From an uncultured virus (IMG/VR IMGVR_UViG_3300011712_000002) (Duplodnaviria > Heunggongvirae > Uroviricota > Caudoviricetes), in the IMG/VR virus record IMGVR_UViG_3300011712_000002: a stretch of 64,000 nucleotides of DNA. One strand, written 5' to 3'. The notes below the pieces were generated by a model. The model was not told the origin of the DNA. It did not search any database and saw only the letters and a program-made list of their open reading frames with translations. Shown piece by piece: positions 10,468 to 29,029 of this stretch; the stretch's first letter is position 1; each line of letters starts with the position of its first letter. The position numbers were made by a program, and so were the translations under genes.

Positions 10468-10677
10468 TTACGGATCACCAACAAGGCTACCCATTCGCAC
10501 TCTCAGCGCACCATCTTTGTAGGCCGATATAGTTCCGTCGTGGCTAATTGTCATCGTCGAACTCCCTTGCTCAACTGCCTCTACAGTGGTCGTGGAGCCG
10601 TAATCACCACGATTCTGCTGAATAGCTTTGGCAAAGAGTGTTGCGGCCGCTCGCTTAAGCTCATCAACGTCTTGCAT
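10468..10677 (-). CDS. Small protein ending in a tail-tip-J-like C-terminal motif
   Basis: MTISHDGTISAYKDGALRVRMG compared with the J C-terminus MVINNNRIEVYDENGRLRVRMG. Confidence 0.55.
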   Translation of the reverse strand: MQDVDELKRAAATLFAKAIQQNRGDYGSTTTVEAVEQGSSTMTISHDGTISAYKDGALRVRMGSLVGDP

Positions 10678-10689
10678 ATCGATCCCTGA

Positions 10690-11045
10690 ATTTGTGCTGG
10701 CTAACCATGCCAGCCGGGCTACGTCTACGATTATTCAACCCATGAATAAATGACATAAGTAATATGGAATGACGTAACGAGATGGGCGGAAGTGCCTTTA
10801 AAACCCGGGTGTTCATGTCGGAATTACCCCCACCCATCTCGTTACCCCATCGGTCGGGTGGCCGTGGCCACCGTCCCTGCGTTCCGTAATCAGACTCGCT
10901 CAGTCTGCTCCATTTCGATAACAGGGCTGGAGACTGACCCTGCTGGTGTTTGGCTATTACGCTACTGCCAGGTACTGAGTGTCGTTTGCATTTATTTTAA
11001 AAGTAAAAATAATCGCTCACCGCCGAAAACGAGAGCGACTATAAT
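10690..11045 (-). ncRNA. Candidate structured RNA with a tmRNA-like mRNA domain (tag ANDTQYLAVA**)
   Basis: Tag frame at 10989-10954, H-type pseudoknot at 10943-10908, 20-bp stem with three G-U pairs (10845-10826/10793-10774), several further hairpins. Confidence 0.6.
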
Positions 11046-11121: not shown

Positions 11122-11463
11122 CTACCTAAGCAACGGGGTTATTTCTTCTAATTCGGAAAGAGACAGCACTCCAGACATTAAACCTATACGCATTGGCACA
11201 TTCATGCGCCCTTTTGCATACAGGAACCCCATTGCGCCAGCGCAATGCTTTTCCTTCCCAGAAGGGTGATAGAAGCCCTCACTGTCGTGATAGCCACCAG
11301 TGGGATGCGTTCTCTTGTGACACTGTAACGGGGTCATGTCGTCGTCCAGCAAATTCTGTTTTATTTCCCCAAGGCGCTCTTCCCCGATCTCAATGCCATT
11401 CTCCTTCAGGAACGGACAGTTTGCGCAGGGCTTCTTGATAGACAGAAAGCGTTTAAAATCCAT
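11122..11463 (-). CDS. Cys-rich Zn-binding phage protein (DUF6283-like)
   Basis: PCANCPF...QCHK...HCAGA. Confidence 0.65.
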   Translation of the reverse strand: MDFKRFLSIKKPCANCPFLKENGIEIGEERLGEIKQNLLDDDMTPLQCHKRTHPTGGYHDSEGFYHPSGKEKHCAGAMGFLYAKGRMNVPMRIGLMSGVLSLSELEEITPLLR

Positions 11464-25339: not shown

Positions 25340-28300
25340 TATCTGGCCTCCTTAAGCTCTTTAACTTCGGCGCGCAGCTCTTTCACCGCCTCAACCAACA
25401 TGCCGATGACACCGTTGTAGTTCAAGCGAAGGCGCTCTTCCTGAGTGGCATGATCGATGTCTGATGTTACCAACTCTGGCTGTACTTCCTGCACCTGCTG
25501 AGCAACGAGACCAGCGGATTGATCATACCCATCCATGTTCTGAATTTCGTAAAGCACACCGTCGATTTTCTCCAGCTTGTCCAGTGCGCTATCAATTTTC
25601 TTAATGTTGCGCTTGTTGCGGCGGTCAGAACGGATGTACACATCGTTAAAGTTACCATTGCCACTGCAAGTCCAGGTGCCATCACTACCCAGATACGCAT
25701 ACGCATCAGTACCATTGTCAGTACGCGATTTGTTGATCATGTAGATGCCGAACTGAGAGTTGCCCAAGCCACCCAAAACGTAATGGCGATCGGCGTGCTC
25801 CTGACGAACGACTGCTGCGGCAGAGCTGGTGCCTACAGCGCCATTACCTTGCAAAGCAGTGCCGGTTCGCATACTGATCCATGAACCACTGGCCGTCGGG
25901 ACATTGATAACGTTACCCGACACAATCCCGCCGTTAGCAGTTAAAGAGCCGCCAACGCCAACGTTATGACCCATTGTTACGTTGCCGGTAATATTGCTCC
26001 AGTAAATTGGACGCAGTCCGTTCCAGCCTCCATTTTGGTCCCCGGATGCAGTCAGCAGGAAGTAGCTTGAACCTCCATCATTGCGAAAGAATGAACCGAA
26101 GGCCCCGTATTTAATACGGAAGCCATTAGCTGAAGTGGTTACGACCTCTCCACTCACCTGACCGCCCGATGAAGACAAAGCGCCTACTTCTGCCGCTGTA
26201 GGTTTGCTACCTGCATGGTAAATCTTCTGATTTGAGTACATCAGATCGCCGGTATCTTTAAGCTGAAGATACTTGCCTGACTTTGTATTTTGCAAGAAAA
26301 CATCGGCAGATCCTGAACCTACTACCGCATTCGATTCGCCACTGCCATTGATAGTCAAACTTCCGGCTGCGCGAATGTTTCTGTTGGTGTACAACTCACT
26401 GGCGTTAAGCTGCAAGGTGGTGTTCTGGATGTAGTTGTGAATCGTAACAACATCATCCGTGCCGCCATTACCAACGTACCAACGTGCAACGNNNNNNNNN
26501 NTTTTCGTCACGTCCCATGAGGTAAACTGCTTGAGACGCCGCCAGCCTTCTCAGTACAAGAGCGGCGCCATTTGCTGCAACGGTCACTTGGCCGGCTACA
26601 GTGCCTCCAGTATTAGGCAACGCCTTCACGTCACCAGCGCTGATCGCAATGTCAGATGTGCCATCAAAAGCCTTGCCTGCAATCTTACGAGACGTGACTA
26701 ATTTGCTGGCGCTTGCCGCATTTGCGCTGATACCCAAAAAACGAGTGTCGAAGTTGGAATAATCACCTGGCAAAACTCTTGCCGGTGTTGAGAACTCACC
26801 ATTAGGTCGGAAGGTGAAGTTTTTAGTTGTGCCTGCTTGATCAGTAATGCTCAGCTCAAACACCATCGTACCAACCAGCCAACCGAGAGACGCTACATAG
26901 CTCTTATCTCCAACGGTCACTTTCTGCTTCACCAGTGGGTGATACTCGCTTGCCCCACTCGAAGAAAACTCATTGAAGAAAGGGGCTTTGGTTTTCCACT
27001 GATCCCGATAGGTTAATGACTCAGCATAATCAGCTGTTACACCACCAATGCTCAATCGACCCTGTTCGTCAATCTGAACTAGATTGCTGTTCCATGTTGC
27101 GCCATTGTCACGATTATCGACATCTAAGCGCAAACAGTTGCCATCACCACGCCAGCGGAAACCAGCGTTTGATGCGCTACGATCAATAAAGGACAGCGTG
27201 GGCGCATAGCTGTTAATCGTGATACCTTGAGAGCCATCATTTGCAGAGCCATTCACAACTAGTGCTGCTTTGGTCAGGTCAGCCACCGCGCCAGCTCCCG
27301 GCGCGTTCACGATAGCCCCTTTTGAGGCGCTAAGTGCTCCCGTTACAGACAGGTCTGAAGCGAGCCTAACATCGCCCGTCACGCTCAAACCGTTCCCCAT
27401 AGTTACTCTTCCGTTTGTAAGAGCGATAGAAAGAGGGCGGAAAGCGTTATAGGTTCCATAATTGTCTTTCAGGTCGGTCAGCATCATGTACCAGTTGGCA
27501 CCATCAATGCGCTGGAATAAGCCGTAGTTACTGCCAACCATACGGTAAGAGTTAGCGGCTGTAGTTTGCATTTCTCCGGTATTCTTAATAGTGCCGGCAA
27601 CGGCAACACCGCCAGTGAAGGATGGAGCGTCACTTGGAGCCAACCCTAAGCCGACCAATACTGCTTTTGTTAAAGCTGATTTAGTCCATAAGTTATCTGC
27701 ATTGAGGCTCTTGGCCGATGCCGCAGCAGATGAGGCACTGGCGGCAGCATTGTTTTCAGAAGTTTTAGCAGCTGACGCTGATTTGCCTGCATTCGAGTTT
27801 GAACTCGCTGCGGCATTCTCAGACGCTTTGGCATTTGTCTCTGATTTTTTTGCGTTAGCTTCGGAGGTCGAGGCATTCGATTCCGAGGTGGCAGCATTAG
27901 ATGCAGAGGTTGCCGCAGCTGCTTTGGAGCTGGCTGAGCTTGTTTCTGACGATTTAGCGTTGGTAGCAGAGGTGGCCGCAGCCGACTTTGAGCTGGCGGC
28001 GTTGGTTTCAGATGCCTTAGCCGCAGTCGCACTTGATGCAGCGTTTTTTTCCGAGGTGCTGGCGTTAGCCTCTGAAGCCGCCGCTGCGGATTTAGAACCA
28101 GCTGCGGCATTCTCAGAAGTCTTAGCGTTTACTTCGGACTTCTTCGCGTTGTTCTCGGATGTTTTAGCGTTAGTTGCGGAGGTGGCAGCACTCGTTGCCG
28201 ACGTCGCCGCCGAACCTTTTGAGCTGGCTGCGTTTGTGGCGGGTGCTGCCGCGGTTTTCTCTGAAGTTTGAGGCTTTGCAGCCTTTCCAGCAGAGGAAGT

Positions 28301-29029
28301 TGCAGAGTCTTGGGAGGCTTTTGCGCTAGTTTCTGAGGTGGCTGCAGCGATTGCCGAACCACTTGCGGCAGTTTCGGATGTCTTGGCGTTAACTTCAGAT
28401 GCTTTGGCGTTTTTCTCTGACGCTGCTGCTTTGGTTGCGGAAGCCGCCGCTGCCGCTTTGGAGGATGCAGCCGCACTCACTGATCCCGCTGAGTTTGTCT
28501 CTGATGTCTTTGCCGCCTTCTGGGATGCCAATGCTGCTGACGCACTTGAAGCAGCAGCTGCTGCGTTAGCGGCGGCCTTCAGAATCGAATCCTTGTTTGC
28601 GGAAAACCAAGCCATTGCCCCTTCGTGCTCAGATATGATCTGACGCAAAGCCTTCAGCGTGATCAGAGTTCCATCCTCAGCTAACAGCTGGGCATCCTGC
28701 CCCGAAGTAAGCCAAGAGCGAATAACGCCTGAATCAATATTCATGCGTTGCAACTGAGCCGCAAATCGCGCTGAAAATTGACTGATGTCCCCTTGATAGG
28801 TGGTGATGATACGGCATGGCGTGTCATTCACGTTTTTGCCATCGTAAGGTTCTACGAGCGTAAGCGATGTATCTGACTCAACCGACTTGATTTCGTATGG
28901 CTCGCCTTTTTCACCAAGCAAAATCATGCCCGGCAGAACGCCATTTTCAGCCTTTGACCAACTGGTGCCAACACCGGTAACAATGTTAGAACCATTGATC
29001 AAGGTCTTAGTACCTTCCCTGTACCACAT
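25339..29029 (-). CDS. Long tail fibre with C-terminal S74 intramolecular chaperone (N-gap 26492-26501)
   Basis: MWYREG start, Stf-like Ala/Ser repeats, FNDVYIRSDRRNK...LNYNG S74 domain. Confidence 0.88.

Follow-up and report, generated by a model that had tools for sequence, protein, structure and literature searches.

The 64,000-nucleotide (nt) stretch of DNA analysed here, referred to as the window, belongs to the uncultured Caudoviricetes virus IMGVR_UViG_3300011712_000002 and carries a gene for a structured RNA on its minus strand. Judged from its sequence, this RNA is derived from bacterial transfer-messenger RNA (tmRNA), is devoid of a tRNA-like domain (TLD) and has a promoter-like site of its own. 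The analysis supports conservation of its sequence and structure, a conserved tag reading frame, the absence of a TLD and the complementarity of its 5′ arm to the template of the host tmRNA, not to its own template. The RNA probably docks in some manner on the host tmRNA. A fuller version of this reading, whose chances are put slightly below even, is that the docked RNA would mask the host tag template, offer its own template in exchange and borrow the TLD of the host tmRNA together with SmpB.

In the proposed mechanism, the 5′ arm would base-pair with the tmRNA of the host cell and thereby hide the host tag template. The resume context and ten-codon tag of the phage RNA would be presented directly 3′ of the arm, followed by equivalents of helix 5, pseudoknot 2 (PK2) and pseudoknot 3 (PK3). 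Provided that the element is transcribed with about the RNA ends predicted here and that docking takes place in vivo, the host alanyl-tmRNA and SmpB at a stalled ribosome would resume on the phage template. Rescued proteins would then carry a phage tag ending in LAVA or LMAA in place of the host tag ending in ALAA, and this changed tag may alter their fate.

The minus-strand element lies in a gap of 440 nt between two open reading frames (ORFs) on the same strand, at 11122-11463 and 10468-10677. The RNA gene is about 340 nt long (a 342-nt minus-strand RNA was used for folding) and runs from a promoter-like site through the invariant heptamer GTTTTCG and an A/U-rich linker ending in ATAAAT to the tag template. 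An earlier sequence-only reading of the window had described the template, and its sequence was confirmed: positions 10989-10954 of the minus strand, preceded by TTAAAATAAAT, read GCA AAC GAC ACT CAG TAC CTG GCA GTA GCG TAA TAG. The features of the element, all on the minus strand, are as follows.

11066-11038, minus strand: predicted sigma-70-like promoter, TTTACC-17-TATAGT, from a promoter scan; predicted RNA start at about 11031-11030.
11030-11005, minus strand: antisense arm of 26 nt, from complementarity to host tmRNA; helix i is GTTTTCG (11030-11024) and helix ii is GCGATTATTTTT (11016-11005).
11004-10990, minus strand: A/U-rich linker of 15 nt with the resume context ATAAAT, from the comparison of 42 versions; the A at -4 is position 10993.
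10989-10954, minus strand: tag template, ten codons (ANDTQYLAVA) and TAA TAG, from the sequence and family comparison.
10971-10943, minus strand: helix-5-like stem around the stop codons, CTGG (10971-10968) with CCAG (10946-10943), from covariation.
10942-10908, minus strand: H-type, PK2-like pseudoknot, from covariation; stem S1 is CAGGG (10942-10938) with CCCTG (10926-10922) and stem S2 is CTCCA (10932-10928) with TGGAG (10912-10908).
10907-10887, minus strand: PK3-like region with the hairpin CAGAC/GTCTG and then the family-wide TGATTA motif, from covariation.
10872-10857, minus strand: variable hairpin GGTGGC/GCCACC, from the predicted fold of the window sequence.
10851-10768, minus strand: long stem-loop, a 20-base-pair (bp) stem with a GATGG/TCATT extension and a variable apical loop, from covariation, single-sequence folding and RNAalifold.
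10754-10696, minus strand: 3′ region with the candidate pseudoknot GTC..GGGTT..GAC..AGCCC and the terminal hairpin GCTGGC/GCCAGC (10714-10696), from conservation in the SSU5-like group.

Throughout the family the element starts at GTTTTCG, and the phages Felix O1 and wV8 are fully divergent just upstream of it. Nt 98-104 of Escherichia coli tmRNA, within tag codons 3-5, are exactly complementary to this heptamer. A second conserved block follows, GCGAC or GCGAT, and is complementary to positions -3 to +2 at the host resume codon. The window arm forms 12 bp, one of them a G-U pair, between GCGATTATTTTT and host nt 80-91. The host nucleotides paired in its helices include the A-run, U85 and A86, the -1 triplet and the start of the resume codon (its first two bases). 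The target as a whole runs from the A-rich linker through A86 and the resume codon to tag codons 1-5, and in relatives up to codons 6-7, and the predicted window duplex has 21 bp at host nt 80-104 with an energy of -24.3 kcal/mol. T1-like, N4-like, Ackermann-type and prophage-like lineages have a longer arm that pairs with host nt 57-107 and so extends over the 3′ half of pseudoknot 1 (PK1). Short arms form 20-29 bp, and long arms 36-43 bp at -40 to -49 kcal/mol.

Against host nt 47-112, none of 200 shuffled sequences gave a duplex as stable in 35 of the 39 lineages, the exceptions being the window (6/200), L108 (7/200), L097 (1/200) and L106 (3/200). On whole tmRNA, with dinucleotide shuffles, the count was 0/150 in 9 of 15 validly tested lineages; in the others it was 3 (SSU5), 5 (L133), 6 (L095), 21 (L097), 31 (L152) and 63 (window). 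Alignment of the arms to host tmRNA scores 11-20 on its reverse complement and 6-10 on its sense strand, with a shuffle mean of about 8.5. The window arm scores 15 in the antisense orientation, equal to the best of 300 shuffles, and 6 in the sense orientation, the shuffle mean being 8.6 (standard deviation 1.4). Extended, conserved complementarity to a defined target, the hallmark sought in a base-pairing RNA, was therefore found in silico. GTTTTCG had also been considered as a homologue of the D-loop analogue in a 5′-truncated tmRNA, an idea dropped since the match of the arm is to the antisense strand rather than the sense strand.

The arm also discriminates between the host template and that of the phage. 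In 39 of 39 lineages it pairs better with the host template region (-12 to +33) than with the equivalent region of the phage's own RNA, and for the window arm the two energies are -24.3 and -9.8 kcal/mol, respectively. Phage templates keep GCAAAYGA, yet they differ from the host at the sites that the arm targets: positions -4 to -1 read AAAT, AACT or AAGT in phages and AGTC in the host, and codons 4-6 are variable where the host has GAAAACTAC. While the phage's own codons 4-6 change, the arm stays constant. Its invariance can be attributed to a host target that is itself nearly constant, the exact 18-nt target core being present in 59 of 80 gamma-proteobacterial tmRNA loci. Among the roles that the sequence-only reading had guessed at, a re-routing of tagging fits the arm evidence; complementation of a cleaved host tmRNA and action as a decoy gained no support either way.

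A minority tmRNA allele was encountered in L219, L223 and L242 (Yersinia and a metagenome-assembled genome), L225 (Sodalis), L250 and L245. It has another upstream triplet and other tag codons, and differs from the common enterobacterial tmRNA at both arm target sites. Such minority host alleles could be escape variants of an arms race.

Conservation of the tag frame was evident in all 42 distinct template versions, each of which has exactly ten codons and then a stop codon, as the sequence-only reading would lead one to expect. Together they encode 20 different peptides, which start with AND or ANE and finish with LAVA, LMAA or a close variant. Codons 2, 3 and 10 vary in the third position only (entropies by position 0/0/0.28, 0/0/1.35 and 0/0/1.65), and codons 4-6 are free to vary. 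The A at -4 and the T at -1 are invariant (42/42). In E. coli tmRNA, the equivalent nucleotide, A86, is described as the main determinant of frame, and the U or C found at -5 in the family is what E. coli tmRNA tolerates (PMC2481249). The mRNA-like domain of a tmRNA thus has its components here, from the resume codon and the A at -4 to a short tag ORF closed by a stop codon.

The sequence-only reading had named a conserved alternative ATG frame (MQTTLSTWQ) as the outcome that would count against it, and this was not seen. Of the 42 versions, 34 have an ATG that overlaps the resume codon and 8 have none, SSU5, pMT and pHCM2 being among the latter. The peptides of this frame, 5-13 amino acids long, are not conserved, and a small ORF in the ATG frame was accordingly rejected as a candidate.

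The 342-nt minus-strand RNA has a predicted folding energy of -122.8 kcal/mol (z score -4.14; 0/100 shuffles as good), and the plus strand folds with a z score of -3.47. Structure was tested on two alignments. Alignment A2 comprises 15 full-length SSU5-like sequences and covers helix 5, PK2, three hairpins, the long stem, the candidate 3′ pseudoknot and the terminal hairpin. In A2, 93.6% of alignment cells are paired, compared with 29-43% when the partners are slid, and 13 pairs show double changes against 3.5 in shuffles (0/500 as high); most of these double changes separate 2 window-type from 13 SSU5-type sequences and so represent few independent events. The family-wide alignment A1 holds 39 sequences, each from a different lineage, and covers helix 5, PK2 and the PK3-like element. 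Here 88.5% of cells are paired, compared with 30-48% when slid, and 112 cells carry double changes against 37 in shuffles (0/500). An excess of double changes that no shuffle equalled was thus obtained in both alignments, in agreement with the covariation that the sequence-only reading had anticipated among homologues.

The H-type pseudoknot proposed from the window sequence is present, with compensatory changes in both stems among homologues. In A2, 100% of its cells are paired, with 2 double-change pairs in S1 and 1 in S2; in A1, double changes occur at 4 of 4 S2 pairs and 3 of 5 S1 pairs. The helix-5-like stem is invariant among the 15 SSU5-like sequences. Across the family, its innermost pair changes in step with base 1 of tag codon 8 and is G-C in 23 sequences and A-U in 15; G-C goes with LAVA tags and A-U with LMAA tags. 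In the PK3-like region, the hairpin CAGAC/GTCTG shows a swap from C-G to G-C, and the TGATTA columns show little or no variation in A1. Compensatory changes are thus present in helix 5 and in the pseudoknots 3′ of the template, both characteristic of tmRNA.

Further 3′, the 20-bp stem at 10845-10826/10793-10774 exists as proposed, with three wobble pairs on the minus strand only. In the whole helix (199-223/266-290), which includes the GATGG/TCATT extension, 5 of 24 pairs show double changes. The long stem has 98.6% of its cells paired in the SSU5-like alignment and is also recovered by the single-sequence fold and by RNAalifold. Relatives hold other inserts at the position of this stem-loop, and a T-arm-like hairpin is part of some of them. 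The variable hairpin at 10872-10857 is not transferable between subgroups (38.5% of cells paired in A2), and SSU5-type sequences have a different, longer hairpin at that position. All cells of the 3′ terminal hairpin are paired in A2 (100%), and one of its pairs shows a double change. No covariation was detected in A2 for the candidate 3′ pseudoknot, whose sequence is highly conserved in the SSU5-like group.

Another part of the early description did not survive. The hairpin that the sequence-only reading placed upstream of the template, at about 11040-11011, corresponds to an inverted repeat of the DNA and has no counterpart in SSU5-type homologues. It straddles the start of the RNA as predicted from the conserved promoter-like site, with its 5′ strand at this start or further upstream. 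This stretch is instead the antisense arm. At the equivalent promoter position, SSU5-type homologues have the hexamers TTTACT-17-TAAGAT or TATGAT, and wV8 and the swi2 group have promoter-like hexamers TTGACA-17-TATAGT or TAGATT. A terminator scan found no intrinsic terminator at the element in the window. In B2 and SP076, manual reading of the sequence indicates that the element ends in a terminator-like hairpin with a T-run. Many other copies lie within tRNA arrays, where processing could set the ends of the RNA.

A TLD was searched for by several routes. ARAGORN called no tRNA or tmRNA gene in the 64-kb window, and Rfam gave no match for the window at gathering thresholds. The one weak Rfam match of relevance in the window, to beta_tmRNA, reached 15.3 bits (threshold 84; E 0.021) and covered the tag region and the first pseudoknot only. 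Similarly, sub-threshold matches to RF00023 in swi2, B2 and bering were limited to the template region, at model positions 82/83-140. A T-loop motif occurs 9 times in the window, against 8.7 expected. The complete plasmid pCP102, which has 98.5% identity over the element, matches neither RF00023 nor RF00005 (0 tmRNA, 0 tRNA). No tmRNA was called within 650 nt of the element among 71 viral loci, and ARAGORN called none in Felix O1 or wV8. As a positive control, E. coli ssrA was detected at 295.8 bits. These results bear out the earlier statement that the RNA has no TLD and does not score as a complete known tmRNA or another Rfam family.

The 16-nt resume context of the window recurs in complete, permuted tmRNAs of other viral contigs. 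Used as controls, these were called by ARAGORN in 7 of 12 cases and scored 62-150 bits with Rfam in 5 of 5. The two-piece permuted layout, with the acceptor piece upstream of the coding piece (RF04321), gave no match in the window; in wV8, RF04321 scored 29.2 bits (threshold 47), and did so only by way of the T-arm of an adjacent tRNA-Ile. With the window, pCP102 and the 71 loci negative and the positive controls found, a complete or permuted tmRNA was rejected. Upstream of the template, no covarying PK1 was detected, and the window has only the 26-nt arm and the 15-nt linker there.

tRNA-like sequences do occur near some relatives of the element. Directly after it, wV8 (L002 2815-2893, minus strand) and Felix O1 (L084 25952-26033) have a D-armless tRNA-like gene, for which manual reading gives an acceptor with C1:G72, G2:C71 and G3:U70, an A73 and CCA, all features of alanine identity. 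The anticodon loop of the same gene has TCT (Arg), and it scores 31.7 bits against the Rfam tRNA model. The D-armless module is also present in phi92, PBECO4 and BIS47. Other relatives have closed domains with a long closing helix, at about 1260-1350 in bering (L074), 1010-1090 in swi2 (L075), 1035-1120 in Ag3 (L082) and 790-850 in B2 (L076). Some of these contain a canonical T-arm-like hairpin; most lie downstream of the template, and that of B2 lies upstream. Their interior is swapped between lineages, and Felix O1 and MK54 share one insert. The closed domains may be remnants of a TLD. At L075 1016-1390 in swi2, ARAGORN reports a tmRNA with an implausible 18-residue tag by joining closed-domain sequence to the 3′ end of a neighbouring tRNA-Met. 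This call is probably a false positive, and calls of this kind may be the source of tmRNA statements in phage genome notes.

With SSU5, Cyrano and pJN2-26 as its best phage matches (identity of about 72%), the window is an SSU5-like phage-plasmid. Matches were found in 773 plasmid records of Klebsiella, Escherichia, Enterobacter, Yersinia (pMT), Salmonella (pHCM2) and Citrobacter, and in 344 of these records the match spans 80% of the element or more. Several hundred phage records match as well, and in hundreds of virulent phages the match lies in the tag and pseudoknot part. Carriers of the family comprise phage-plasmids of the SSU5, pMT and pHCM2 types and Felix O1-, Vi1-, T1- and N4-like phages. 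In the Felixounavirus genomes wV8 and Felix O1, the element lies within a tRNA array, on the strand of the tRNAs. The other representatives examined were Kolesnikvirus EAP4; bering, Menlow and Ag3 of the Ackermannviridae; the T1-like swi2, Akira, MK54 and ZCKp20p; and the N4-like B2 and SP076. A degenerate pattern scan of IMG/VR matched at least 117 stretches, and the 80 of these that were examined comprised 71 family members and 9 chance matches in coding sequence.

The element is unannotated in most of the records inspected, and a few list an overlapping ORF as a hypothetical protein. Its neighbouring genes are wholly different between phage groups, and it often sits in tRNA arrays. The RNA is therefore not the orphan confined to a phage-plasmid that the sequence-only reading envisaged, since the family extends to at least four virulent phage groups and to prophage-like contigs. 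That reading was right in describing a structured, tmRNA-derived RNA with a genuine tag frame and no TLD; what it overlooked was the antisense copy at the 5′ end.

Several observations concern the surroundings of the element. In SSU5 (L001, about 3000-2640, minus strand), a long non-coding stretch with a long-range inverted repeat of 17-19 bp lies downstream, followed by tRNA-Asn. Where SSU5-type replicons have this non-coding stretch, the window type has an ORF of 69 amino acids (10677-10468). In Yersinia pestis pMT (L088), the element occupies 401-791 and caf1R, the regulator of the F1 operon, starts at 919, about 130 nt from the end of the conserved element. The capsule locus of pMT occupies the place of about 650 nt of non-coding sequence and the tRNA-Asn of SSU5. 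Elsewhere in the window, at 27709-27941 and 28318-28600 on the plus strand, there are weak sub-threshold matches to the Rfam family isrG, of 21.7 and 26.1 bits (threshold 100).

The geometry of the element is consistent with docking. From the last paired nucleotide of the arm to the resume codon there are 12-13 nt in 29 long-arm lineages and 10 nt in 3, and the linker measures 15-17 nt in 7 short-arm lineages, with 15 nt in the window. In the host, 11 nt separate PK1 from the resume codon (manual count on the E. coli sequence). As these lengths are similar, the phage resume codon would leave the hybrid at about the same place as that of the host. Co-folding with host nt 47-135 favours the dimer, with free-energy differences (ΔΔG) of -12.6 (window), -15.3 (SSU5) and -21.4 kcal/mol (B2).

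A number of points weigh against template replacement by docking. We know of no tmRNA, natural or engineered, whose template is joined to the TLD by an intermolecular helix only. Ribosomes unwind short helices, so that masking of the host template may be incomplete. When the whole tmRNA is used, the gain on co-folding is just -2.8 (window) to -7.9 kcal/mol, in a model without pseudoknots. The arm may not be free to pair, since the single-sequence fold pairs part of it with the 3′ region of the same RNA and RNAalifold pairs part of the SSU5-type arm with the start of its own template. The window itself has one of the shortest arms in the family (21 bp), with the weakest support: its duplex energy is unremarkable on whole tmRNA (63/150) and modestly significant on the accessible region (6/200). 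Host tmRNA varies too little for a test of covariation between phage and host, and a search for an arm adapted to Pasteurellaceae returned 5 matches, all in coding sequence and due to chance. Some of the codon-level patterns also fit a constraint on RNA structure, as codons 7-10 lie in helix 5. Contigs from public sequencing runs (18 listed, of which X1, X3, X10 and X13 were mapped) have a depth of 0-7 and give neither RNA ends nor strand.

The arm could also act as an antisense inhibitor and nothing else, blocking or destabilising the host tmRNA, for example through cleavage of the duplex, and so shutting down host tagging or rescue during infection; the template part would then be an untranslated scaffold, a stabiliser or a protein-binding mimic. 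This principal alternative is plausible in outline but doubtful overall. It accounts for the best-supported feature of the RNA, namely the complementarity of the arm, and long arms would make imperfect duplexes of 36-43 bp. Synthetic anti-tmRNA oligonucleotides are described as suppressing the release of stalled chains in cell-free systems (PMC3384345). What it leaves unexplained is the presence of exactly ten sense codons and a stop in all 42 versions, the invariant A at -4, the restriction of variation to the third position at codons 2, 3 and 10, the constrained length of the linker, and a phage template that avoids the arm target sites yet keeps GCAAAYGA. Alternatively, the RNA might be a degenerate, 5′-truncated phage tmRNA that serves as a decoy without docking, titrating S1, secondary sites of SmpB or RNase R. 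The resemblance of the template, helix 5 and the PK2- and PK3-like parts to tmRNA would suit a decoy, as would the T-arm-like hairpins in the closed domains of some relatives, which look like TLD remnants. The arm makes this unlikely, because host tmRNA is matched in its reverse complement, not in its sense strand, and because the arm is invariant while phage codons 4-6 vary freely. Moreover, the template region is unpaired in the Rfam consensus structure of tmRNA; a sense homologue would have no intramolecular partner to mimic, and sense homology cannot yield the complementarity of the arm.

A TLD that escapes ARAGORN and Rfam, whether a closed T-arm domain in cis or the phage-encoded tRNA-like gene of Felix O1 and wV8, would make the RNA part of a complete but unconventional tmRNA. 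The location of that gene right after the element, its G3:U70, A73 and CCA on manual reading, and a 3′ half resembling the 3′ end of E. coli tmRNA invite the comparison, and T-arm-like hairpins lie downstream of the template in bering, swi2 and Akira. Nevertheless, no tRNA-like sequence exists in the window or in the near-identical complete plasmid, B2 and SP076 end at a terminator with no such domain downstream, and an ordinary tRNA-Arg(TCT) replaces the gene in other Felix-like phages. The closed domains, considered as a possible circular permutation and inspected by eye, have neither CCA nor G3:U70. The wV8 gene has no special complementarity to the template RNA (94/200 shuffles pair as well), and a phage two-piece tmRNA formed with it was rejected on that count; a hidden TLD in any of these forms is very improbable. 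Hardly credible, finally, is that the element is just a small ORF (MQTTLSTWQ) or that it regulates the neighbouring genes in cis as their leader. The overlap of an ATG with the resume codon in 34 of 42 versions, and the position of the element between two same-strand ORFs, are what might be expected of either. Against the ORF are the 8 versions without ATG (those of SSU5, pMT and pHCM2 included), frame peptides of 5-13 amino acids and the lack of a visible Shine-Dalgarno sequence; against a leader is the complete change of flanking genes between phage groups, with the element often in tRNA arrays.

Docking with replacement of the host template would have consequences for proteolysis. ClpX reads the last three residues of the host tag (LAA), and SspB reads the AANDENY part. 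Both of these parts are altered in the phage tags. It is tentatively suggested, as a broader and less secure proposal than docking itself, that phages and phage-plasmids of enterobacteria may turn the host tmRNA into a bipartite tmRNA of host and virus, which would still rescue ribosomes but whose virus-chosen tag, likely a poor ClpXP substrate, would rewire the fate of unfinished proteins. Should the docking model hold, the RNA would be the first encoded by a virus that is found to pair with tmRNA and thereby reprogram ribosome rescue in bacteria. It would further show that a complete tmRNA can be provided with a tag template in trans, a point of relevance to the choice of the resume codon by the ribosome and SmpB. 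On the more cautious reading, an antisense RNA against host tmRNA would represent a new class of phage counter-measure against trans-translation. The family is common, has been missed by ARAGORN and Rfam, and is present in model and therapeutic phages and in the pMT and pHCM2 lineages. Searches confined to open-access full texts met with no account of a template RNA without a TLD, of a phage RNA complementary to tmRNA or of a template docked in trans.

The genome announcements of Moogle and Felix O1 each report, in one sentence and without coordinates, an ARAGORN 'tmRNA gene, ssrA' (PMC4319497, PMC4392139). The ssrA placed in the tRNA array of Felix O1 and Moogle is probably the same locus as the element. 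Those single sentences mention neither a missing TLD nor complementarity to host tmRNA. In its account of phages, the exhaustive 2014 survey of tmRNA lists phage tmRNAs in mycobacteriophages (the Bxz1 cluster, for example) and Bacillus phage G only, in addition to the TLD-only form of DS6A (PMC4131195).

The element resembles bacterial tmRNA (RF00023, clan CL00001) in its resume context with an A at -4, in its first codons (GCA AAY GAN), in a ten-residue tag that starts with AND or ANE and has a small hydrophobic end, in stop codons set within a helix-5-like stem, in its downstream pseudoknots and in its size (about 340 nt compared with 363 nt). In contrast to bacterial tmRNA, it has no acceptor stem, T-arm or CCA and, in the window, no PK1. 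Its Rfam score of 15.3 bits (beta_tmRNA) compares with a threshold of 84 bits, and its 5′ end is antisense to tmRNA, where that of tmRNA forms half of the TLD. Complete phage tmRNAs, for example those of the Bxz1 cluster and phage G as listed in the survey and the permuted ones on L005, L013, L036, L043 and L054, are likewise borne by phages and encode a tag, some in the same resume context. The permuted viral tmRNAs are detected as complete, at 62-150 bits, whereas the template-only family is not.

The two-piece permuted tmRNAs of alpha- and beta-proteobacteria and cyanobacteria (RF04321, RF01849, RF01850) have their template on a separate chain paired to the acceptor part, and the arrangement proposed here would also be bipartite. 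In the known two-piece tmRNAs, both pieces come from one gene in one genome and the coding piece keeps the 5′ acceptor strand. In the proposed phage arrangement, the phage RNA would instead be joined to a complete tmRNA, that of another organism (the host), by a helix on the template region of this partner. Synthetic anti-ssrA oligonucleotides, as described in PMC3384345, offer a laboratory analogue of the arm, but are artificial DNA and bring no replacement template. The TLD-only mini-tmRNA of DS6A-type mycobacteriophages is a partial tmRNA encoded by a phage, for which interference with host trans-translation has been proposed (Hudson, Lau and Williams 2014, PMC4131195). It is the mirror image of the present family: it keeps the TLD and lacks the tag template, and the phage RNAs described here do the opposite.

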